From Acidimicrobiia bacterium (GTDB lineage: Bacteria > Actinomycetota > Acidimicrobiia > Spongiisociales > UBA11373), in NCBI GenBank assembly GCA_029263095.1, contig JAJCYA010000043.1, positions 2,470 through 66,469 on the forward strand: a DNA stretch of 64,000 nucleotides. The letters run 5' to 3'. Positions 1,492-46,724 of the stretch are shown here, one piece after another. The position numbers were made by a program, and so were the translations under genes. A model generated the notes under the pieces. It was not told the origin of the DNA. It worked only from the letters and a program-made list of their open reading frames with translations, and did no database searches. Positions within the stretch are counted from its first letter, which is position 1. Each line of letters opens with the position of its first letter.

Positions 1492-2859
1492 TCACGGGGT
1501 TCTCCTCAGACCCTGCATGAGGGCTGTGACACGATCGAACAGCATTTCGTCCTCGGTCATGAGGCGGCCGACCGTGTTGATACCGTGGAGAACAGTTGTG
1601 TGATCGCGGCCTCCAAAGATCGTTCCAATCTTGGGCAATGAAAGGTCGGTCATCTCCCTCACGATGTACATGGCGATCTGGCGGGCACGAGCCAGGGGCT
1701 GGTGGCGCCGCGGTCCCTCAAGGTCAGAAATGGAGAGACTGAAAGCCTCCGCGGTCGCGGCCAGAATCCGCCCGGGGCTCACCGGCGCCATGCTGTGAGC
1801 CGGACCGAGATCCTGAAGCACGTCCTCGGCCATCTCGAGATCGATGGGCTGATGAGTTAGTGCTGCGTATGCCGTCACCCGAGTGAGAGCACCCTCCAGT
1901 TCCCGGATGTTGTCCACGACTCGGGTGGCGATGAATTCGAGAACGGGCTCGGGTATTGGCTGGGGCGCAAATGCTGCATTGCGGCGGAGGATCGCAAGAC
2001 GGGTCTCGACGTCGGGCGGCTGGATATCGGTTGTGAGTCCCCACTCGAAACGGCTACGGATCCGCGCTTCGAGGTTGGTAAGACTCTTTGGCGGGCGGTC
2101 TGCCGAAAAGACGAGCTGCTTACCTGCCTCGTAGAGAGAGTTGAACGTGTGGAAGAATTCCTCCAGGATCTGTTCCTTCCCCTCGAGGAATTGAACATCG
2201 TCGAGAAGGAAGAGGTCAACGGTCCGATAGTGAGCCTTGAACTCGTCCATCCTCTTCTTGCGGATGGAGTCGATGAAGTTGTTGAAGAACTCCTCGGATG
2301 ACACGTAGGAGATCTCGAGGTGAGGGTGGAGCAGTGCCGAATGCTGGGCTACGGCGTGGAGGAGATGGGTCTTTCCTAGACCCGAGCCACCGTATACGAA
2401 CAAAGGGTTGTAGTTCCCGCCGGGCTGTTCGGCAATGGCCATGGCAGCAGCATGGGCAAAGCGATTGGAGGGACCCACGACAAAGTTTTCGAACGAGTAC
2501 TTGGGGACGAACCGCTGTTCGGTCGGGGAGCTTTCTACCTGCTGCGGCGCCGAACCGATCGGTTCTGGCTCCGAGTCCTCCTCGATGAGGGGCTCATAGG
2601 CCGGCTCATCCGGAGCCGATAGCTCGACGGAGAGGCCGGAACCAAAGGCTATTCCGACGGCATCTTCGACGAGGGGACGGAACTTTTCGTTGACCCAACG
2701 TAGATGGAACTCACTCGGTGCGGTTATGTGGATGACGTCGTCGGCTATCGATTCCGGACGGAGCCCATCAAGCCATGTCCTCCAGGTGACCGGCGTGACC
2801 CGTCCACGGAGCGTTTGCCGGAACTGTTCCCAGCTCTCGGCAGCCGGATTCGCTTCCAC
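1492..2859 (-). CDS. dnaA: chromosomal replication initiator protein DnaA
   Basis: 455 aa, AAA+ Walker A GGSGLGKTHLLHAV and a C-terminal DNA-binding domain. GTG start at 2859 (V-E-A-N-P...). Confidence 0.95.
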   Translation of the reverse strand: MEANPAAESWEQFRQTLRGRVTPVTWRTWLDGLRPESIADDVIHITAPSEFHLRWVNEKFRPLVEDAVGIAFGSGLSVELSAPDEPAYEPLIEEDSEPEPIGSAPQQVESSPTEQRFVPKYSFENFVVGPSNRFAHAAAMAIAEQPGGNYNPLFVYGGSGLGKTHLLHAVAQHSALLHPHLEISYVSSEEFFNNFIDSIRKKRMDEFKAHYRTVDLFLLDDVQFLEGKEQILEEFFHTFNSLYEAGKQLVFSADRPPKSLTNLEARIRSRFEWGLTTDIQPPDVETRLAILRRNAAFAPQPIPEPVLEFIATRVVDNIRELEGALTRVTAYAALTHQPIDLEMAEDVLQDLGPAHSMAPVSPGRILAATAEAFSLSISDLEGPRRHQPLARARQIAMYIVREMTDLSLPKIGTIFGGRDHTTVLHGINTVGRLMTEDEMLFDRVTALMQGLRRTP

Positions 2860-4067: not shown

Positions 4068-5017
4068 TGTCTGCGATCTGGAATGGGATCCAGGAGGTTC
4101 TCGGCGGAATCCTGTCGTTCTTCTATGGGCTCATACCAAATTTTGGTATAGCAATCATTCTGTTGACTGTGACGATTGGGCTGTTGCTCTTTCGGCTCAC
4201 TCTCAAACAGACCCGTTCGATGAAGGCGATGCAGGAGATTCAGCCTGAGATCAAGCGGATCCAACGCGAACTCAAACAGGATAAGCAGGCCCAGCAGGCC
4301 GCGATGATGGAGCTCTACAAGGAGAAGGGCGTTAACCCGGCTGCCGGGTGCCTGCCGCTCCTGATGCAGATGCCCATCTGGTTCGCCTTGTTCAGCGTGT
4401 TGAGGTCCTTTGGGAACTCTCAATTGGCGGAGCGCCTGAAGTGGGTGACATCGGGAAGTGAACTCGAGGCGGCCGTCCGTGCCCACAGCGCGACGACCCC
4501 CACGTTGGACTTCCTCGGAATGGATCTCACCCGAACACCGAGCGCCGTCGGTTTCGGCGAGACGGTCGATGGCGCACAGATCGCCGGCGACTTTGTGGCG
4601 GCAATCCCCTACTTCATAACGATTCTCATCGTGATGGGTACGGCCTACTACCAGCAGAAGCAGACGATGTCCCGCAGTAACAGCCAGAATCAAGCACCAC
4701 AGCCGGGGCAAGCCGTAATGAAGATTTTTCCATTCTTCTTCGGCTTTATCTCCTTCAACATGCCGGCCGGTCTGGTGATGTACTTCGCAGCCAGCCAGAT
4801 CTTCCGGATTGGACAACAGGCCCTGATTATCAGCCTCGACGAGAAACACGCCGCAGAGGCGGTCGTCGAGGCAAAGGAAGCCAAGAAGGTCAAGCCAGCA
4901 GCTGAACCGATCAAAGAGGGAGATGACGTTGCCGGAGGATCCACCGCGGGTTCCGGTCCCAAGCGACGCCCCCAAGGGTCGAAGAAGAAGCGCGGCAAGA
5001 AGCGGAGGAGAAGGTAA
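4067..5017 (+). CDS. yidC: membrane protein insertase YidC (short actinobacterial form)
   Basis: 316 aa, multiple TM helices and a Lys/Arg-rich C-terminal tail. ATG overlaps the yidD stop (TGATG). Conserved position in the rpmH-rnpA-yidD-yidC-jag cluster. Confidence 0.85.
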   Translation: MSAIWNGIQEVLGGILSFFYGLIPNFGIAIILLTVTIGLLLFRLTLKQTRSMKAMQEIQPEIKRIQRELKQDKQAQQAAMMELYKEKGVNPAAGCLPLLMQMPIWFALFSVLRSFGNSQLAERLKWVTSGSELEAAVRAHSATTPTLDFLGMDLTRTPSAVGFGETVDGAQIAGDFVAAIPYFITILIVMGTAYYQQKQTMSRSNSQNQAPQPGQAVMKIFPFFFGFISFNMPAGLVMYFAASQIFRIGQQALIISLDEKHAAEAVVEAKEAKKVKPAAEPIKEGDDVAGGSTAGSGPKRRPQGSKKKRGKKRRRR

Positions 5018-32945: not shown

Positions 32946-33068
32946 CGTGTCAGTACCCCCTATCGGAAGGAGCGAGAAGCGTATCAGGCCCTTCCCGGCG
33001 CTGGCAGGGCCGGCGACCGGCTTGAGACCGATCTCACCTGAGACGACAGAGGGTGAGTGAGTCTCTGG

Positions 33069-34178
33069 CTACAGGCCGAGATACTCCGCAAGGGCTTCAT
33101 CGGTGCGATCCTCGCCGGCTGCGAACGCCTCGACGAACTCGTGAGCGTCGCCGTCACGGAATTGGACCGGTGGGCTCTTCATGAAGTATGACGAGGGGGC
33201 CAGCAGCGGGCCGCCGATCCCGTTGTCGAGTGCGATCTTCACGCAGCGAACCGCATCGATGACCACTCCCGCCGAGTTGGGGGAATCCCACACCTCGAGC
33301 TTGAGTTCGGCGTTCAGCGGCACATCGCCGAACGACTTGCCCTCGAGACGGATGTAGGCCCATTTGCGGTCGGTCAGCCACGCTACGTAGTCCGAGGGGC
33401 CGATGTGGACGTCATCCTCACCGATGCCATTATCGAGCTGTGAGGTGACCGACTGCGTTTTCGAGATCTTCTTGGACTCGAGACGCTCCCGTTCGAGCAT
33501 GTTCTTGAAGTCCATGTTTCCGCCGACGTTGAGCTGATAGGTGCGCTCCAACTCGACTCCGCGGTCCTCAAAGAGCCGCGCCAGCAGCCGATGGATAATC
33601 GTGGCACCCACCTGTGACTTGATGTCATCACCGACGATCGGCACCCCGGCGTCATAGAACCGACGAGCCCATTCGGGGTTGGAGGCGATAAACACCGGGA
33701 TGGCATTGATGAAGCCGACACCGGCTTCGAGCGCTGCCTCGGCGTAGAAGCGAATTGCATCTTCAGAACCCACGGGGAGGTAGGCGACGAGAACATCGGC
33801 CTTGCTCTCCTTGAGGGTGGCGACGACGTCTACCGGTTCGGCGGCAGATTCCTCGACGGTGAGTCGGTAGTACTTGCCGAGCCCATCGTGTGTCGGACCT
33901 CGCAACACTTGGACTCCGAGGTCGGGCACGTCACAAAACTCGTAGGTGTTGTTGACGCCGGCCCACATGGCCTTGCTGAGGTCTTGGCCGACCTTGGCCG
34001 CATCCACGTCGAAGGCAGCGACGAACTCGATATCACGGATGTGGTAGCCGCCGAGATCCACGTGCATGAGGCCAGGTACTGAGGTGCCCGGCTCGGCGTC
34101 GTCGTAGTAGTGGATGCCTTGGATGAGTGAGTTGGCGCAGTTGCCGACCCCGGCGATTGCTACTCGTACTTTGCTCAT
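33069..34178 (-). CDS. ino1: myo-inositol-1-phosphate synthase
   Basis: 369 aa. N-terminal Rossmann [18 protein letters not shown]. Matches the actinobacterial/archaeal INO1 family throughout. Confidence 0.9.
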
Positions 34179-34190
34179 TGTCTTCCCTCT

Positions 34191-34709
34191 CTATGAAGCC
34201 TTGGCGCCGTTGGCGTCGTCCCGCTCGGACTCGATGAGTTCGTCCAACCAGGCCACATCGGCCTCGGCGGAGCGGACCCCGTGCTGCATGAGCGACGAGG
34301 TGTACCGGTCGACCCGATCGGCGGTCTTGCGGATCGAGCTACGGGTGTTGGTGATCCGTTCCCTGAGGACCGCCTTACGCCGTTCCAGGAAGCCGATCCG
34401 AGTGTTCGGCTCCATGTACTTGAAGAACGCGAGTCGGACTCGGAAGGCGGTGGTGTTCTCGACTTCCGATGACTCGTCTTCAAGGATCTCCTGGAAGTAC
34501 TCCTTGCCCTCCGCGGTGATCATGTACTCCTTGCGTCGACCCGAACCGGGCCGTACCTCGATGTGACCTGCTTTCTCCAAGCGGCGCAGCGCCGGGTACA
34601 CCGACCCGAACGAGATACGCCAGAAACCGAAGTCGAGGAGTCGCTGTCGCAACTCGTATCCGTGCATCGGTCCTTCGCGGAGCAGTCCAAGAATGGCCAT
34701 GTCGAGCAT
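34191..34709 (-). CDS. PadR-family transcriptional regulator (upstream of ino1, as Rv0047c-Rv0046c in M. tuberculosis)
   Basis: MLDMAILGLLREGPMHGYELRQRL...SVYPALRRLEKAGHIE is the PadR winged helix. ATG at 34709 chosen. Track ORF extends to 34784. Confidence 0.8.
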   Translation of the reverse strand: MLDMAILGLLREGPMHGYELRQRLLDFGFWRISFGSVYPALRRLEKAGHIEVRPGSGRRKEYMITAEGKEYFQEILEDESSEVENTTAFRVRLAFFKYMEPNTRIGFLERRKAVLRERITNTRSSIRKTADRVDRYTSSLMQHGVRSAEADVAWLDELIESERDDANGAKAS

Positions 34710-34776
34710 ATGAAGGTTCGTTATAGCGGATCGATATATCGAAACGCAAGTAGAAGCCAGCATTTCTTTCGCGTTC

Positions 34777-34974
34777 TGTCTCACTCCCCCCTTGTGGGTT
34801 AGTCAATCGGCGGAGCCGATTGGTGGGGGGTGAGACAGGCGCGGCGTAGCCGGGTGGCACGTGTTGTGGGGGAGTGATATTCCTATCCGATCCTTCCCCC
34901 CTTGTGGGGGAAGTCCGTGAGGAGCGCAGCGACGAGGGGGATGGGGGGTCTCTTCAGCTTCCCACCATCCCCCC
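34777..34974. repeat. cluster of three C6/G6-type hairpins in the PadR-ino1 leader, including a nested 19-bp palindrome
   Basis: H1 34777-34836: GTCTCACTCCCCCC...GGGGGGTGAGAC, enclosing CAATCGGC-GGA-GCCGATTG (34804-34822). H2 34893-34913: CTTCCCCC-cttgt-GGGGGAAG. H3 34936-34974: GGGGGATGGGGGG...CCCACCATCCCCCC. The 13-mer CCCCCCTTGTGGG occurs twice. Confidence 0.5.
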
Positions 34975-35023
34975 AGTCTTGGTATCAGGGGAGTTGCCTA
35001 CAAGGTGCCGAGCGTCTGGTGCC

Positions 35024-35509
35024 TCAGTACGCCCCGCCCAACTTGGTGTGGTCCCAGGAGGTGATGCGTTCCGGCTCGACGACCACGGCGGTGTTCTTGG
35101 GGGCAAACCGACCAAAGGCCTGTTCGAGTGCGTCGGGGTCCATCTCGATCGGTGCGGGGCCGACCATCGGGTATCTGCCCGCCAGCCTGCCGTAGAGGGC
35201 GAGTAGGTACTCGGGGTCGTCGTCACCGTCGATGAGCCGTGCGGTGCCCCTGATCATCACCGCTTGCAGTTGGGCGTAGGCGACACCCCGTTCGACGAGC
35301 ACGGTGATGCGGGGGTCACGCGCCAGATTGACGATCTTTTGACTCTTGGTGAACGAGCGGAAGACGATCTTGCCGTCCTCCATCACGTACCACATAGGTG
35401 CGGTGTGAGGATGGCCGTCACTGCCGATCGTGGTGATGATGAGGGTCATCTCCTCGGCGAGGAATGAATCCATCTCCTCGGATGTGAATGAGATGTCTTT
35501 GCGGGCCAC
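35024..35509 (-). CDS. pyridoxamine 5'-phosphate oxidase-like / F420-dependent PPOX-class flavin-binding protein
   Basis: 161 aa with a split-barrel FMN-binding fold pattern (LIITTIGSDGHPHTAPMWYV...RITVLV). Confidence 0.7.
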   Translation of the reverse strand: MARKDISFTSEEMDSFLAEEMTLIITTIGSDGHPHTAPMWYVMEDGKIVFRSFTKSQKIVNLARDPRITVLVERGVAYAQLQAVMIRGTARLIDGDDDPEYLLALYGRLAGRYPMVGPAPIEMDPDALEQAFGRFAPKNTAVVVEPERITSWDHTKLGGAY

Positions 35510-35603
35510 TGGGCTCCTTCCGGGCGCCGTCGACAGTAGCCATCAGGACGTTCGCGAGATCGAGCCGACCCGCTCTACACTCTGCGCAACCCGGAAAGAC
35601 ACT

Positions 35604-35642
35604 CATGAGCGCAGGCAAGGATCGACGGCTTGAGACCCGTTG
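35604..35642 (+). CDS. candidate 12-aa leader peptide (MSAGKDRRLETR) upstream of the pyr-operon attenuator
   Basis: ATG at 35604, 6 nt after GGAAAG. Stop at 35640-35642, 25 nt before the terminator hairpin. Purely sequence-based. Confidence 0.2.
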
Positions 35643-35667
35643 AGCGCCCCGTTGCTCGTTGCCTCTT

Positions 35668-35696
35668 GGCCCCCCTCGTGGGGGCCCTTCTTTTTG
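35668..35696 (+). terminator. intrinsic terminator/attenuator hairpin 5 nt upstream of the pyrC start
   Basis: GGCCCCC-CTCGT-GGGGGCC followed by CTTCTTTTTG, a classic rho-independent structure. Located in the 5' leader of the pyr operon, not after a gene. Confidence 0.55.
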
Positions 35697-35700
35697 CCTC

Positions 35701-36771
35701 ATGACGACTATTCGCCTCCCCGGACTTGTCGACATCCACGTCCACATGCGTCAGCCGGGGGCGGAACACAAGGAGACGTGGGAGACGGGCACGGCTGCCG
35801 CTCTCGCGGGTGGCTTTGCGACGGTGTTCGCCATGCCCAATACCTCGCCCGCCGTCGTAGACGAGAGAACACTCGATCTGGCGCTCGAGACCGCAAGTAG
35901 CGGAGCGCGCTGCGACTACGCCCATTTCCTCGGAGCCGGTCTCGGCAACGTCGATTCTGTCGCCAAGTCGGCCGGCCGTGCTGCCGGCCTCAAGATGTAC
36001 CTCGGTGAGACCTTTGGTGATCTCCGTCTGGACGATCCCGGGCTCTGGGCGGCTCACTTGGAGCGGTGGCCGGATGACGGCGTGGTGGCGGTTCACGCCG
36101 AGGGGCCGTCCCTGGAAACCGTTGTTGGCCTTGCGGAATCGATGGAGCGGGCCATTCATGTCTGCCACGTGGCCGGCGCCGCCGACATCTCTCTGATTGC
36201 CGGCGCCAAGGAGCGAGGCGTTGCCGTCACATGTGAAGCCAGTCCGCATCACCTGTTCCTCGATCGGACCTCAGATCTCTCGTTCGGGCGTGCCGAGGTG
36301 CGACCCCGTCTGGGCACCCCCGAGGACCGACGAGCACTGTGGGATCACCTCGATGTGATCGACTGCTTTGCGACGGACCACGCACCTCACACACTCGCCG
36401 AGAAGGACGGAGCCAATCCTCCCCCCGGATTCCCCGGCCTGGAGACGGCGCTCCCACTGCTGCTCACCGCGGTTCACGAAGGGCAACTCACCCTTGACGA
36501 TGTGATCGAACGCCTGCACCTACGTCCGATCGAGATCTTCGGACTGCCGGTGGATCCCGACACGTGGGTCGAGGTCGATGTCGACGAGGAGTTCGAGATT
36601 GCCGCCTCCGGGATGAGCCGTTGTGGGTGGACGCCGTTCGCAGGCGCCCCGGTGCGGGGGATGGTCAACACCGTGGTGATCCGTGGGGCGACTGCATACG
36701 AGAAGGACCTGACTGTCGCGGCTGCCGGAACGGGCCGTGATCTACGATCGGAAGAGAGAAGGACCGAATGA
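35701..36771 (+). CDS. pyrC: dihydroorotase (or DHOase-like amidohydrolase) of the pyr operon
   Basis: ATG at 35701 ([20 protein letters not shown]...). Metal-ligand motifs DIHVH and DHAPH, and a Gly-rich region. Overlaps the pyrB start (ATGA). Confidence 0.8.
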
Positions 36772-37760
36772 CGATGACGCAGGAGGAGGAGAAGGTGAGG
36801 GCGACACACATACCCTTCGGGGATCAGCGGGATGCGCCCTTCTACGGGAGGGACATCGTCTCGGTGCGGCAATTCACCGACGACGACTTGACCTACATCT
36901 TCGATGTCGCCCATGAGATGCAACAGATGGTGGCGCGGATCGGCGCATTCGACCTTCTCAAGGGCAAGCTGCTCGCAAACCTCTTCTACGAACCCTCGAC
37001 GCGGACGTCCTCGTCGTTTACCGCTGCCATGGAACGGCTTGGTGGCAGTGTGATACCGATCAATGAGGTGACGTACTCCTCTGTGTCGAAGGGCGAATCA
37101 CTTCCAGACACTGTTCGGTCACTAGAGGCATATGCCGACGTCATCGTGTTGCGTCATCCCGAGAAGGGAGCCACCGCCCTCGCCGCTCAGTACACGAAGA
37201 AGCCGATCATCAATGCCGGCGACGGAGTGGGCGAGCATCCGACGCAGGCATTGCTCGACCTCTTCACGATCCTCGAGGAGTTGGGTGAAGTAGACGGCCT
37301 CACCGTCACCATGGTCGGGGATCTCAAATACGGCCGGACGGTGCACTCACTGGCGCGCCTCCTGTCGCGCTACGACGTGACTCTCAACTACGTCTCACCC
37401 GACATTCTCAGAATGCCGGAGTCGATCGTGGCCGAGATCGAGAACGGCGGAACCCCACAGATCGTCCACACCAACCTCGACGACGTCATTGCCGACAGCG
37501 ACGTGGTGTACGTGACGAGGGTCCAAAAGGAGCGGTTCGAGAATCCGGCCGACTACGACGCCGTTTCCGGCGCCTACGTCATCACACCCGAGACCATGAA
37601 GGTGGCCAAGGATCGGATGGCGCTCCTACACCCCTTGCCGCGAGTCAATGAGATCAGCATTGACGTAGACGACGATCCTCGTGCCGCCTACTTTCGTCAG
37701 ATGGAGTACGGCATGTATGTCCGGATGGCACTGCTGGCGTTGGTGCTCGGCAAGGCGTGA
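36768..37760 (+). CDS. pyrB: aspartate carbamoyltransferase catalytic subunit
   Basis: STRTS ([12 protein letters not shown]), HPTQALLD and HPLP motifs, 330 aa. An ornithine carbamoyltransferase is less likely given the pyr context. Confidence 0.85.
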
Positions 37761-39133
37761 CCACACCCTTCTTCCATCAGCTCGCGGAGCGGGTGACGGC
37801 GACCGGATCGCTGCTGTGCGTTGGTCTCGATCCTAGGGTTGAGACGCCTCGTCAGGCACTCGACCACTGCAAAGCCATCATCGCGGCGACGGCGCCACAG
37901 ATCGCCGTCTTCAAGCCCAACAGCGCCTTCTTCGAAGCCTTGGGGTCGCCCGGAATCGAGGCACTGGTGGAGGTCATCGCCGCCGTGCCCGAAGAGATTC
38001 CGGTGCTGCTCGATGCCAAGCGGGGCGACATCTCCTCGACCGCAGCCGCCTATGCCACGGCGGTGTTTGATCGTCTCGGCGCCGGCGCGGTGACGGTGAG
38101 CCCTTATCTCGGCAGGGACTCGATCGAGCCGTTTCTGGAGCATGAGGGCCGCGGGGTGTTCGTGTTGTGTCGGACCTCGAATCCGGGCGGCCGCGATCTA
38201 CAAGAGAAGGAACTCGGATCGGGCGAACCCGTATATGTGGAGGTAGCCCGAATCGCCGCCGGATGGGCGGGGGCGGACCGCCTGGGATTGGTGGTCGGTG
38301 CCACTGTCCCCGATGCCGTTGCCCGGGTCCGCAGTGTTGCTCCCGACCACTGGATTCTGGCCCCGGGCGTCGGTGCCCAGGGCGGTTCACTGGAGGAAAC
38401 CGTGGCCGCTGGGTTGCGGGAAGATGGGGCAGGCCTGCTGTTGCCGGTGTCGCGCTCTGTCGCCGCCGCCTCAGATCCGGCGGTCGCGGTGGCAGATCTG
38501 AACGCCGCCGTCGGGCAAGCCGGCAGGACCGTGAGTCGTACCGGGGCCGCGCCGGAGACGAGCCTTGCAGTAGAACTGTTCGATGCCGGATGTGTCCGTC
38601 TTGGCGACTTCGAGTTGAAGTCTGGAACACGGTCGCCGATCTACCTCGACCTGCGGACGCTGGCGGGTCATCCCCGCCTGTTGCGGAGGATTGCCGCTTG
38701 TTACATCCCTCTGCTCGGCGAGTCGGACCGCATCGCAGGTGTCCCGCTCGCCGGACTGCCGATAGCGACCGCAGTATCGCTGGAGTCGGAGATCCCGCTG
38801 GTGTACCCCCGCCCCGAGGCGAAGGCCCACGGCACCCGTTCGACAGTGGAGGGACCCTTCAGTACCGGTGACAGCGTGGTGGCCGTGGACGATGTTGCTA
38901 CCAGTGGAGTAAGCGTTCTCGAGGCGGCAGCACAATTGCGCGACGCCGGGCTCGTTCTCGAAGCAGCGGTGGTGCTCATCGACCGCCAGGGCGGTGCCGG
39001 AGCTGCATTGGAGAAGGAGGGCATCGAGCTGCGAGCGGTGATGAGCCTGATCGATATGGTGGGATTGCTGTTGGAGGCAGATCGCATCAGCGACTCCGAA
39101 GCTGCCCGGGTGTACGAGTTCCTTGGGGCCTGA
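37757..39133 (+). CDS. pyrF: bifunctional orotidine-5'-phosphate decarboxylase (type 2) / orotate phosphoribosyltransferase fusion
   Basis: N-terminal ~270 aa: LLCVGLDPR...[13 protein letters not shown]...LLDAKRGDI (type 2 PyrF). C-terminal ~180 aa: [17 protein letters not shown]...[13 protein letters not shown] (PRPP-binding motif of PyrE). Confidence 0.85.
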
Positions 39134-39135
39134 GG

Positions 39136-40122
39136 GTGTACCGAACCCTGCGCAGCATCGCGTTCCGCTTTGATCCCGAGCGGGTTCACACGGCCGCGAT
39201 CCAGTCCTATCGCTTGCCTCGACCATGGCAGAGACGATCGCCCGGCCACTCTCAGGTGCTGATGGGACTCGAGTTCCCCAACGTGGTCGGTCTGGCGGCT
39301 GGCTACGACAAGGATGCCCGCGCATGGCGGGGGCTGGCGGCGCTCGGCTTCGGCCACATCGAGGTGGGCACGGTCACCCTGCAGCCGCAGGCGGGCAACC
39401 CGCGTCCCCGTATCTTCCGTTTACCGGCCGACAGGGCCCTCATCAACCGGATGGGCTTTCCCAGCGAGGGGGCAGAAGCGGTGGCGGCAAGGCTCGCCGG
39501 TCGGCGCCCCGGCGGTCTGGTGCTCGGCGTCTCGATCGGTCCCAACGGGTTTGGTGAAGCGGAGCAGGCGGCTCGGGACTACGAGCAGTTGATCGACCGA
39601 TTCGCGCCACTTGCCGACTACCTGGCGATCAATGTGAGTTCGCCCAATACTCCCGGCCTACGCACGCTCGAAACGGGTGCCGATCTGAAGGAGCTGCTGC
39701 AACGAATCGTGGCGAGAAGAGATAGGCAGGCTGCGGCAACCGGTGCGCCTACCCCTCTGGTGGTCAAGCTGTCACCCGACATCGGTTCCGACGATCTGAC
39801 CACCACGATCGACTCGATAGAGTCGGCGGGAATCGATGGGATCGTCGTCACCAACACGACGACGGATCGGCCTGGTGTGACGACTACGGAGAGCGGTGGG
39901 CTGAGCGGTGCACCGCTGACGCCGCTCAGCCTGCGTGTACTCCAAGAAGTCAGGGATCTGACGGCCCTCCCTCTCATCGCATCCGGCGGGATCATGTCGA
40001 TGACCGATGCCCGAGTGCGACTCGAAGCCGGAGCTGCCCTGGTTCAGATCTACACCGGCTTTGTGTATCAGGGCCCGACTCTCGTCAGGTCGATCGCAGC
40101 CTTGTCGCCGGTTGACGCCTGA
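39136..40122 (+). CDS. pyrD: dihydroorotate dehydrogenase (quinone), class 2
   Basis: GLEFPNVVGLAAGYDKD...GFGHIEVGTVT...LAINVSSPNTPGLR...ASGGI. 328 aa with GTG start. Confidence 0.9.
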   Translation: MYRTLRSIAFRFDPERVHTAAIQSYRLPRPWQRRSPGHSQVLMGLEFPNVVGLAAGYDKDARAWRGLAALGFGHIEVGTVTLQPQAGNPRPRIFRLPADRALINRMGFPSEGAEAVAARLAGRRPGGLVLGVSIGPNGFGEAEQAARDYEQLIDRFAPLADYLAINVSSPNTPGLRTLETGADLKELLQRIVARRDRQAAATGAPTPLVVKLSPDIGSDDLTTTIDSIESAGIDGIVVTNTTTDRPGVTTTESGGLSGAPLTPLSLRVLQEVRDLTALPLIASGGIMSMTDARVRLEAGAALVQIYTGFVYQGPTLVRSIAALSPVDA

Positions 40123-45365: not shown

Positions 45366-46724
45366 ATGACAACTCAACTCGAGGGCCCGAGGACCATCCC
45401 CTCTGGGGTGCCACCACACAACGTGGAGGCCGAGGAGAGCGTTCTCGGCGCGGTCATGTTGTCTGCCGACGCGGCAGCCGTAGCTCTCGAGCAGCTTCGC
45501 CCAGAGGACTTCTACCGACCGCCGCACCAGTCGGTCTTCGAGGCGATCACGGCACTCTTTGACGGCAATCAGGCGATCGATGCGATCACTGTTAGTGATT
45601 GGCTGCGGCGCAACGACGACCTCGAGCGGGTGGGCGGGATTTCCTTCCTCAACCACCTCATGGACACGGTGCCCGCCACGTCGAACGTCGGCTACTACGT
45701 GGACATCGTGGACGAGACGGCGTCGCGTCGCCGGCTGATGAGAGCAGGTTCGACGGTGGCGCAGATCGCAATGCAGAGCGAGCGTGCGATCGATGAGGTA
45801 CTCGATTCGGCTGAAGCGGAAGTCTTTGCCGTTGCAGACCGTCATGTCGGAGAGGGTCTCTCTCGCCTCGGCCCGATCCTGCAGGACACCCTCGAGAAGA
45901 TCGAGGAGATCGGCACCCGTGGGGGAGACATCACCGGCGTCCCCACCGGCTTCAAGGATCTCGACAAGAAGCTCGCAGGGCTGCATCCCGCCAACCTGGT
46001 GGTGATCGCGGCTCGACCCTCGATGGGGAAGAGCGCGCTGGCGCTCAATATCGCCCAAAACGTCGCTGAGATCGGCAAGCCCATTGCCGTCTTCACATTG
46101 GAAATGAGCCGCGAGGAGGTGGTCCAGAGGCTGCTGTCTTCGATGGCCTCAGTTGACTCGCACAAACTCCGGACCGGTCAACTCGGACCCGAGATGTGGC
46201 AGAAGCTTGCCAGGGAATCCTCTCGCCTTTATGAGATGCCTTTCTACGTGGATGACTCACCGGATCTGACGGTCACTGCGATTCGCGCCAAGTGCCGTCG
46301 GTTGAAGCGCAAGTCGGATCTCGGTCTCGTGGTCGTTGACTACCTGCAGCTCATGCAGGGTCCGACCCGCAGCGATAACCGTCAGCAGGAGATTGCTGAG
46401 ATCAGCCGTTCCCTGAAGAACCTCGCTCGCGAGCTTCATGTGCCGGTGATTGCCGTGTCACAGTTGAACAGGCAGTTGGAGCAGAGGGAGAACAAGCGTC
46501 CCCGGCTCGGCGACCTGAGGGAATCGGGCGCCATCGAGCAGGACGCCGACATTGTGATGTTCATCTACCGAGATGAGTACTACAACGCGGAGAATCCAGA
46601 GACCCGCGGTATTGCCGAGGTCAGTGTCGCCAAGCACCGCGCCGGAGCCACCGGGACCGTCATGATGACGTTTGCGGCGGAGTTCACCCGGTTCCGCAAC
46701 TTCACCCGTTCGGACCCGATCTAG
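45366..46724 (+). CDS. dnaB: replicative DNA helicase DnaB (no intein)
   Basis: 452 aa. N-terminal domain, Walker A ARPSMGKSALAL, and RecA-like C-domain motifs. Length excludes an intein insertion. Confidence 0.95.
   Translation: MTTQLEGPRTIPSGVPPHNVEAEESVLGAVMLSADAAAVALEQLRPEDFYRPPHQSVFEAITALFDGNQAIDAITVSDWLRRNDDLERVGGISFLNHLMDTVPATSNVGYYVDIVDETASRRRLMRAGSTVAQIAMQSERAIDEVLDSAEAEVFAVADRHVGEGLSRLGPILQDTLEKIEEIGTRGGDITGVPTGFKDLDKKLAGLHPANLVVIAARPSMGKSALALNIAQNVAEIGKPIAVFTLEMSREEVVQRLLSSMASVDSHKLRTGQLGPEMWQKLARESSRLYEMPFYVDDSPDLTVTAIRAKCRRLKRKSDLGLVVVDYLQLMQGPTRSDNRQQEIAEISRSLKNLARELHVPVIAVSQLNRQLEQRENKRPRLGDLRESGAIEQDADIVMFIYRDEYYNAENPETRGIAEVSVAKHRAGATGTVMMTFAAEFTRFRNFTRSDPI

Follow-up and report, generated by a model that had tools for sequence, protein, structure and literature searches.

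The pyrBI operon of Escherichia coli is the textbook case of attenuation in which the speed of RNA polymerase, set by UTP, is read out by the ribosome that trails behind it. To our knowledge, this mechanism has been treated as an enterobacterial peculiarity, with Gram-positive bacteria being said to use PyrR. Pyrimidine supply is also coupled to translation that reaches or crosses a terminator ahead of a pyr gene at rph-pyrE of E. coli, where a complete gene takes the place of a short leader ORF, and in Thermus ZO5, where a pyr leader peptide is combined with PyrR. The attenuator of pyrBI, known from E. coli and Salmonella, is crossed by pyrL, which in E. coli is an ORF of 44 codons and serves here for comparison, and termination is suppressed by a closely following ribosome (PMC5021804, PMC4824070). 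That is, tight ribosome-polymerase coupling across pyrL prevents the terminator from forming (PMC5021804). In mycobacteria, leaderless Cys-rich uORFs serve as attenuators that sense an amino acid through their codon content (bioRxiv 10.1101/834739).

The leader analysed here precedes a pyrC-pyrB-pyrFE-pyrD operon within a 64-kb stretch of DNA, hereafter the window. Judging from its sequence, it is probably a ribosome-mediated attenuator of the pyrBI/pyrL type, non-homologous to PyrL and combined with translational coupling into pyrC. As in pyrBI, the terminator stands directly before the first pyrimidine gene, is of similar folding energy, is preceded by pyrimidine-rich sequence, and is accompanied by no conserved antiterminator and, within the window and the flanks of related loci, by no recognizable PyrR. 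Furthermore, a predicted leader ORF crossing the terminator (ORF2) reads it in the same register as pyrL: G-A-F-F over GGGGC(U/C)UUUUUU is common to pyrBI and leaders of the window clade, where the QPLNRGAFF of pyrL corresponds to APVVGAFF in the window's close relatives and to APLVGALLF in its own ORF2. In contrast to pyrBI, this leader belongs to an Acidimicrobiia-like actinobacterium and stands in front of pyrC; its ORF starts on TTG, is 24 codons long and is preceded by an overlapping 12-codon uORF (ORF1). Moreover, pyrL stops 3 nt short of pyrB and contains the Shine-Dalgarno (SD) sequence of that gene, whereas the ORF2 stop overlaps a pyrC start that has no SD, and the U-run pause cluster of pyrBI is missing from the window. 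The two ORFs show no sequence homology: the pyrL family model PF08052 gave no match at E ≤ 10 to the window ORF2 or to three leader peptides from Anaerolineae, and 117 bits (3e-34) with E. coli pyrL as positive control.

The attenuation exerted by PyrR in Bacillus and many Gram-positives (RF00515) resembles the proposed system in having a terminator in the pyr leader and premature termination as output, but in the window the PyrR box and the anti-antiterminator/antiterminator pair are both missing, and no pyrR gene was found nearby. Similarly, the regulatory codons and the antiterminator alternative of trp/his-type attenuators are both missing from the window leader. The mycobacterial uORFs are comparable to the ORFs described here in that they, too, are short regulatory frames which annotation has passed over and which open actinobacterial operons, and their leaderless start recalls the Anaerolineae leaders discussed below, but in the window leader codon content carries no signal. 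A leader of this kind in Chloroflexi or Acidimicrobiia was absent from Rfam, Pfam and the literature searched.

The pyr operon and the terminator in its leader

The region 35510-35700 is intergenic and separates a PPOX gene of the F420 type (35024-35509, minus strand) from the divergent, plus-strand pyr operon. The latter consists of pyrC (35701-36771), encoding a short dihydroorotase of 356 aa, pyrB (36768-37760), which overlaps pyrC through ATGA, a pyrF-pyrE fusion (37757-39133; NF004034, TIGR02127 and TIGR00336), which overlaps pyrB through GTGA, and a quinone-dependent pyrD (39136-40122). The pyrC start at 35701 is supported by 18 aligned homologues, all of which have the N-terminus M-x-x-(I/L)-(R/K)-L-P-G-L. 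PyrC falls short of the curated cut-off in all NCBIfam dihydroorotase models (with TIGR00857, 239 bits where 279 are required), and it is without the ~45 N-terminal residues that are present in longer forms of the enzyme.

The nearest named relatives of PyrC come from Anaerolineae (55-62% identity), whereas DnaA, encoded at 1492-2859, has identities of 62-74% with proteins assigned by name to Acidimicrobiia or Actinomycetota. The most likely host is therefore an actinobacterium of the class Acidimicrobiia with a pyr operon similar to that of Anaerolineae. A transfer of this operon, leader included, between phyla may have taken place. Both dnaA (1492-2859, minus strand) and dnaB (45366-46724, plus strand) lie in the window, which places it near the chromosomal origin. 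On the divergent side, the block at 33069-35509 (minus strand) comprises ino1 (myo-inositol-1-phosphate synthase), a PadR regulator and the PPOX gene, the GTG start of which is preceded by a conserved TACTGT box and the SD GGAAGGAG. This block is syntenic in one related locus (L161) and also in another (L168), where a VapBC toxin-antitoxin pair is inserted. In three further loci (L169 1-1324, L170 1-1200 and L175 1-1337) the gene upstream of the leader is instead an inosine-uridine nucleoside hydrolase (PF01156) in the same orientation, so that a pyrimidine salvage gene adjoins the de novo operon.

Folding and conservation identify a putative attenuator hairpin, GGCCCCC-CUCGU-GGGGGCC (35668-35686, plus strand), with a 7-bp all-GC stem, followed by the U-tract CUUCUUUUUG (35687-35696; as DNA, CTTCTTTTTG), at which termination would be expected around 35692-35697. 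The energy of the hairpin is -15.8 kcal/mol (z = -2.5 against shuffled sequences), compared with -16.4 kcal/mol for the E. coli pyrBI attenuator folded in the same way. Since the upstream PPOX gene is divergent, the hairpin sits in a 5′ leader and not 3′ of a gene. The first-pass annotation had recognized a textbook intrinsic terminator in the pyrC leader, and was right in this; it had placed the end of the terminator 5 nt before the pyrC ATG, where the gap between T-tract and ATG in fact amounts to four bases (CCTC). Two circumstances that it named as potentially fatal to a role in attenuation are disfavoured. A leaderless pyrC transcript starting 3′ of the hairpin was rejected because there is neither a -10 box nor room for such a start, and the hairpin is no candidate terminator for an antisense transcript, as on the minus strand it is followed by AAGAGGCAACG rather than by a U-run. 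A search of both strands of the 64-kb window under strict criteria (stem of at least 6 pairs, at least 4 GC pairs, at least 6 T in 9) yielded two terminator-like sites, at 4102-4117 and 35668-35686; canonical intrinsic terminators are very scarce in this DNA.

Conserved leader signals and two overlapping ORFs

The window leader was compared with its orthologues, as the first-pass annotation had recommended, in a set of 14 distinct leaders (window, L161, L081, L168, L001, L172, L169, L170, L164, L082, L165, L086, L174 and L175) that precede PyrC proteins, those of the relatives being 62-80% identical to the window PyrC. The terminator is conserved in all 14, as are ORF1 and the spacing between the two; the hairpin has 92.9% of cells paired, and a T-rich tail is present in every relative. 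Moreover, the outer pairs of the stem covary, GC being replaced by AU or UA through compensatory changes. One of these leaders, which matches the window-clade pattern almost base for base and precedes a PyrC of 71% identity, comes from a metagenome-assembled genome labelled Acidobacteria (L001, JACZWZ010000050.1), probably as a result of wrong binning or labelling.

No sigma-70 consensus promoter was found by a consensus scan of 33000-38000, and the leader promoter, which is deduced from conserved boxes, would thus be a non-consensus one. A -10-like box, TACACT (35576-35581, plus strand), occupies a single column of the 12-leader alignment A2 as TACACT, TAGACT or TACAGT; only L082, which is cut by the contig end, is without it, and TACACT is also found in L174 and L175. 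From this box to the end of the terminator the distance is 116-126 nt, or 121-126 nt in all leaders except L086. A putative -35-like box, (G)TTCGCG (35551-35556), lies 18-19 nt further upstream and recurs at identical spacing in seven leaders (window, L161, L081, L168, L001, L169 and L165). The predicted transcription start would be at ~35588-35589 (AA).

Two short ORFs follow. ORF1 (35605-35643, plus strand; peptide MSAGKDRRLETR) has 12 codons, from an ATG at 35605 to a TGA at 35641-35643, lies in the frame of pyrC and is preceded at 6 nt by an SD-like box, GGAAAG (35593-35598). An ATG-initiated ORF1 of 8-12 codons is kept in 14 of 14 leaders, with a purine-rich box 5-11 nt before the ATG in all relatives. 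The ORF that the first-pass annotation had described, 12 codons with a plausible ribosome-binding site, therefore stands as such; its distance to the hairpin is 24 nt, however, and not 25.

ORF2 had been missed and is a new finding, a predicted ORF that is unannotated and conserved. It consists of 24 codons (35630-35704, plus strand; M/L plus 23 residues), overlaps ORF1, starts on TTG, a weak start codon, and reads across the spacer and the whole terminator to a TGA (35702-35704) that overlaps the pyrC ATG. Its putative SD, AAGGA (35617-35621), is located inside ORF1, 8 nt upstream of the TTG; 12 of the 14 leaders have AGGA, AGGAA or GAGGA at 7-9 nt ahead of the ORF2 start, L170 has GAGAA and L086 a weak match, and the SD columns are nearly invariant in alignment A2. 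The start itself falls in one alignment column in all 14 leaders, as TTG in eight, GTG in four and ATG in two, and never as CTG. The ORF1 stop lies 0-12 nt downstream of this start among the relatives, including one TTGA overlap (L164). The ORF2 frame is free of stops in 14 of 14 cases, whereas its two alternatives are so in 4 and 0 of 14. Because stop codons are rare in DNA this rich in GC, open frames are cheap, with a probability of ~0.4-0.7 per sequence for one of 24 codons, and the case for ORF2 therefore rests on the joint pattern across relatives.

Part of this pattern is the overlap of the ORF2 stop with the pyrC start, which is found in all 14 leaders (ATGA, and GTGA once) although ORF2 falls into seven length classes (75, 81, 84, 90, 96, 135 and 222 nt). 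Whatever was inserted between the terminator and pyrC has thus left the reading frame intact. The longest version belongs to L170, where ~150 nt of GCTGTCG-like short repeats (1352-1500) separate the terminator from pyrC; despite these repeats the leader ORF stays open for 73 codons and still ends in an ATGA overlap. Codon-level purifying selection on ORF2 left no signal, as amino-acid conservation was no better than in another frame and there was no excess of third-position changes. This is to be expected if the sequence of the peptide does not matter, but it does mean that one line of proof is lost. Neither ORF1 nor ORF2 contains codon runs that could serve as regulatory codons.

The pyrC start has no SD, as had been noted before, whereas the neighbouring PPOX gene does have one. 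The first-pass annotation had supposed that translation of pyrC may depend on an antitermination-linked structure; the ATGA at 35701-35704, in which the pyrC ATG and the ORF2 TGA overlap, fits more simply, and termination-reinitiation from ORF2 into pyrC would be the simpler explanation for a start of this kind. The second codon of pyrC begins with A throughout the clade (ACN, AGC, AGA or ATH), also when the residue is Ser (AGC) or Arg (AGA).

Between the ORF1 stop and the stem lies a pyrimidine-rich spacer (35644-35667, plus strand) of 24 nt, of which 18 are C or U (75% pyrimidine) and none is A, a candidate region for NTP-sensitive slowing or pausing of the polymerase. The spacer is 24-25 nt long in 12 of the 14 leaders and 62-84% pyrimidine by hand count; the 30 nt before the stem are on average 66% pyrimidine. 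The window spacer has no U-run, and the T content of the window clade is 0.23 against a background of 0.19. The window clade thus lacks a clear U-run pause element such as E. coli and the Anaerolineae have, and the sensing step is the weakest link in the proposed mechanism.

Alternative folding of the leader, another check recommended earlier, disclosed no conserved antiterminator: RNAalifold on the related leaders gave the terminator and otherwise only a 4-bp helix, and no mutually exclusive antiterminator/anti-antiterminator helices appeared in their folds. Single-sequence folds likewise contained only the terminator and a modest leader hairpin. The latter forms between ORF1 sequence and the first part of the spacer, with 76-83% of cells paired and some compensatory changes among the relatives, and in the window it is no more stable than shuffled sequences (z = -0.9). 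Upstream of the terminator, neither RNAalifold nor Rfam pointed to a conserved aptamer-like fold, and the window clade has no conserved unpaired motif except the ORF signals.

Leaders of pyr operons in Anaerolineae

A leader terminator before a pyrC-pyrB-pyrFE-pyrD operon was also found in ~45 of 80 genome loci, the leaders from Anaerolineae being those among L002-L080 (examples are L010 3836-4000, L045 3836-4003 and L007 3830-4003). The Anaerolineae leaders have a near-consensus promoter, TTGACA-N16-TAnAAT, and the ATG of the leader ORF follows the -10 box by only 7-12 nt, which argues that the ORF is leaderless. A single ORF is present, mostly of ~24-60 codons, often ending in an ATGA overlap with pyrC. 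It reaches the leader terminator in 33 of 36 loci, compared with 31 of 72 for control frames; in 21 of the 36 it passes through the terminator in a conserved register (..REPxxGSLFL..), and in 12 its stop codon falls within the stem or at its foot. Many of the leaders contain an upstream hairpin followed by U7, the fraction of U before the stem is 0.34 against 0.22 locus-wide, and T-runs of at least 4 occur in 36 of 66. The terminator stem, AGAGAGCC/GGCUCUCU, is conserved as sequence and does not drift by compensatory change.

The Anaerolineae leaders resemble that of the window in operon order, in a terminator that is crossed or abutted by a leader ORF and, frequently, in the ATGA overlap with pyrC. 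They differ from it in their near-consensus promoter, the single leaderless ORF, the additional hairpin with U7 and the sequence-conserved stem. The Anaerolineae design is an independent parallel to that of the window clade and speaks in favour of the pyrBI-type reading.

A proposed pyrBI-like mechanism and its alternatives

In the mechanism that we propose, transcription would begin at ~35588, directed by the promoter-like pair TTCGCG/TACACT, and by default RNA polymerase would not get past the hairpin with its U-tract (35668-35696) and would terminate shortly before reaching pyrC. If, however, the first ribosome on ORF2 followed the polymerase closely, it would cover the 5′ arm of the hairpin, so that the hairpin could not form and the polymerase would read through into pyrC-pyrB-pyrFE-pyrD. 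The signal would be the supply of pyrimidine NTPs, i.e. UTP and possibly CTP. With scarce UTP, the polymerase would be slow in the C/U-rich spacer and the U-tract and the ribosome would catch up, whereas with plentiful UTP the polymerase would outrun the ribosome and terminate. The same ribosome would then end ORF2 on the UGA of the AUGA and reinitiate on the SD-less pyrC AUG; given such a hand-over, pyrC would be translated only from read-through transcripts with a translated leader.

A simple attenuation model of this kind leaves the retention of ORF1 unexplained. ORF1 overlaps the SD and the start of ORF2, and its stop lies 9 nt past the TTG, from where it could deliver ribosomes to that codon. 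We therefore suggest that ORF1 probably acts as a relay, by which the leader hairpin would be opened and the weak TTG supplied with ribosomes; a part as decoy would be another possibility. Two other links to the downstream frames were rejected, namely read-through of the ORF1 UGA into the same-frame pyrC, since L161 and L168 have extra in-frame stops, and a +1 frameshift from ORF1 into ORF2, since there is no slippery context.

All alternative readings that were considered rank below the pyrBI/pyrL-type attenuator. It seems unlikely that the terminator is a constitutive dampener, with ORF2 serving only to couple the SD-less pyrC, or to tie pyr expression to general translation, and with no sensing of pyrimidines. 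Such a reading would fit the missing U-run pause element of the window clade, the failure of Rfam and RNAalifold to reveal a ligand- or protein-binding element, and the continuation of ATGA-type overlaps at pyrC/pyrB and pyrB/pyrFE, which makes coupling look like a general habit of the pyr operon. However, two phyla keep a strong terminator right ahead of their pyr operons, and an ORF crosses it in every case, which matches the known design for UTP sensing; furthermore, the Anaerolineae versions do have the hairpin with U7 and U-rich tracts, and a constitutive terminator ahead of an essential pathway would be costly. Control of termination or of pyrC translation by a trans-acting RNA-binding protein encoded elsewhere, PyrR-like or new, is given a low probability. 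Most actinobacteria use PyrR, only 64 kb of the genome is visible here, and the sequence-conserved Anaerolineae stem AGAGAGCC recalls the AGAGAG core of the PyrR box. Against this, Rfam searches returned only chance-level matches and no PyrR element, both at the gathering threshold over the whole window and 15 related loci and, for RF00515, at E ≤ 10 in the window leader and two Anaerolineae leaders; the window clade, as described above, offers no unpaired motif beyond the ORF signals. In addition, tblastn searches of the window and of the flanks of 170+ related loci with a B. subtilis PyrR query found no homologue, as no match reached E ≤ 1e-3 and those up to E ≤ 50 were noise. The earlier observation that pyrR and a PyrR-binding loop are missing thus holds within the window and these flanks, and the PyrR-type control that the first-pass annotation had entertained as an option is disfavoured on the same evidence.

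UTP-sensitive, translation-coupled attenuation reminiscent of pyrBI had been its other option, with ORF1 as the acting ORF. The comparative evidence supports the core of this idea, a leader attenuator that would work by translation coupling as in pyrBI and without PyrR, but not the part assigned to ORF1. We regard it as improbable that ORF1 is a sensor of the trp type, in which the position of its ribosome would choose between alternative leader structures, even though ORF1 and its SD-like box are present in all 14 leaders and the hairpin between ORF1 and the spacer shows partial conservation and some compensation. With no conserved antiterminator, and a C/U-rich spacer that is unable to pair with the GGCCCCC arm, there is nothing for an ORF1 ribosome to control; the hairpin in question has a z of only -0.9 in the window, and ORF1 has no codons that would report pyrimidine status. 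The conservation of the ORF1 3′ end is better explained by the ORF2 frame, P-A-E/D being kept where the T-R-stop of ORF1 becomes A-C-stop. Furthermore, the repression that a ribosome standing on a stop codon exerts on a terminator drops strongly once the gap reaches ~18 nt; it is largely lost by ~18-30 nt and gone beyond ~27-30 nt (PMC4824070). At 24 nt from the stem, about where repression fades, a ribosome on the ORF1 stop would thus be too far off to block the hairpin, which argues that ORF2, and not ORF1, is the ORF able to act on it if translated. Least probable of all, and very much so, is a riboswitch or reiterative transcription at the start site. Controls of this kind are known for nucleotide genes, e.g. 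at pyrG and in pyrBI initiation (PMC7039003), but the leader has no conserved aptamer-like fold and no Rfam match, and the predicted initial transcript, AACCCGG, was judged to be without a homopolymer run at its start.

On the pyrBI/pyrL-type reading, a wider proposal can be put forward tentatively, one that we consider possible rather than probable. It would be a three-step relay from ORF1 to ORF2 to pyrC, in which one pioneer ribosome sets both read-through and pyrC translation. Together with the Anaerolineae version, this relay would represent an old family of protein-free, NTP-sensing attenuators spread across Actinomycetota and Chloroflexota, which would have arisen independently of the enterobacterial pyrL and might read CTP, in addition to UTP, through the C-rich spacer.

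If the leaders work as proposed, the logic of pyrBI would now be found in an Acidimicrobiia-like actinobacterium and across the Anaerolineae, with peptides that are not homologous to PyrL, with a start that is either leaderless or relayed by a uORF, and with the first enzyme gene coupled directly by a stop/start overlap. This suggests that protein-free, kinetic sensing of NTPs is a recurrent solution in the control of pyrimidine synthesis. It would also make sense of a first gene that lacks an SD, and it adds a conserved, unannotated class of small ORFs to these genomes. Finally, such leaders would be small natural systems in which transcription-translation coupling could be examined in phyla that have received little attention in this respect.
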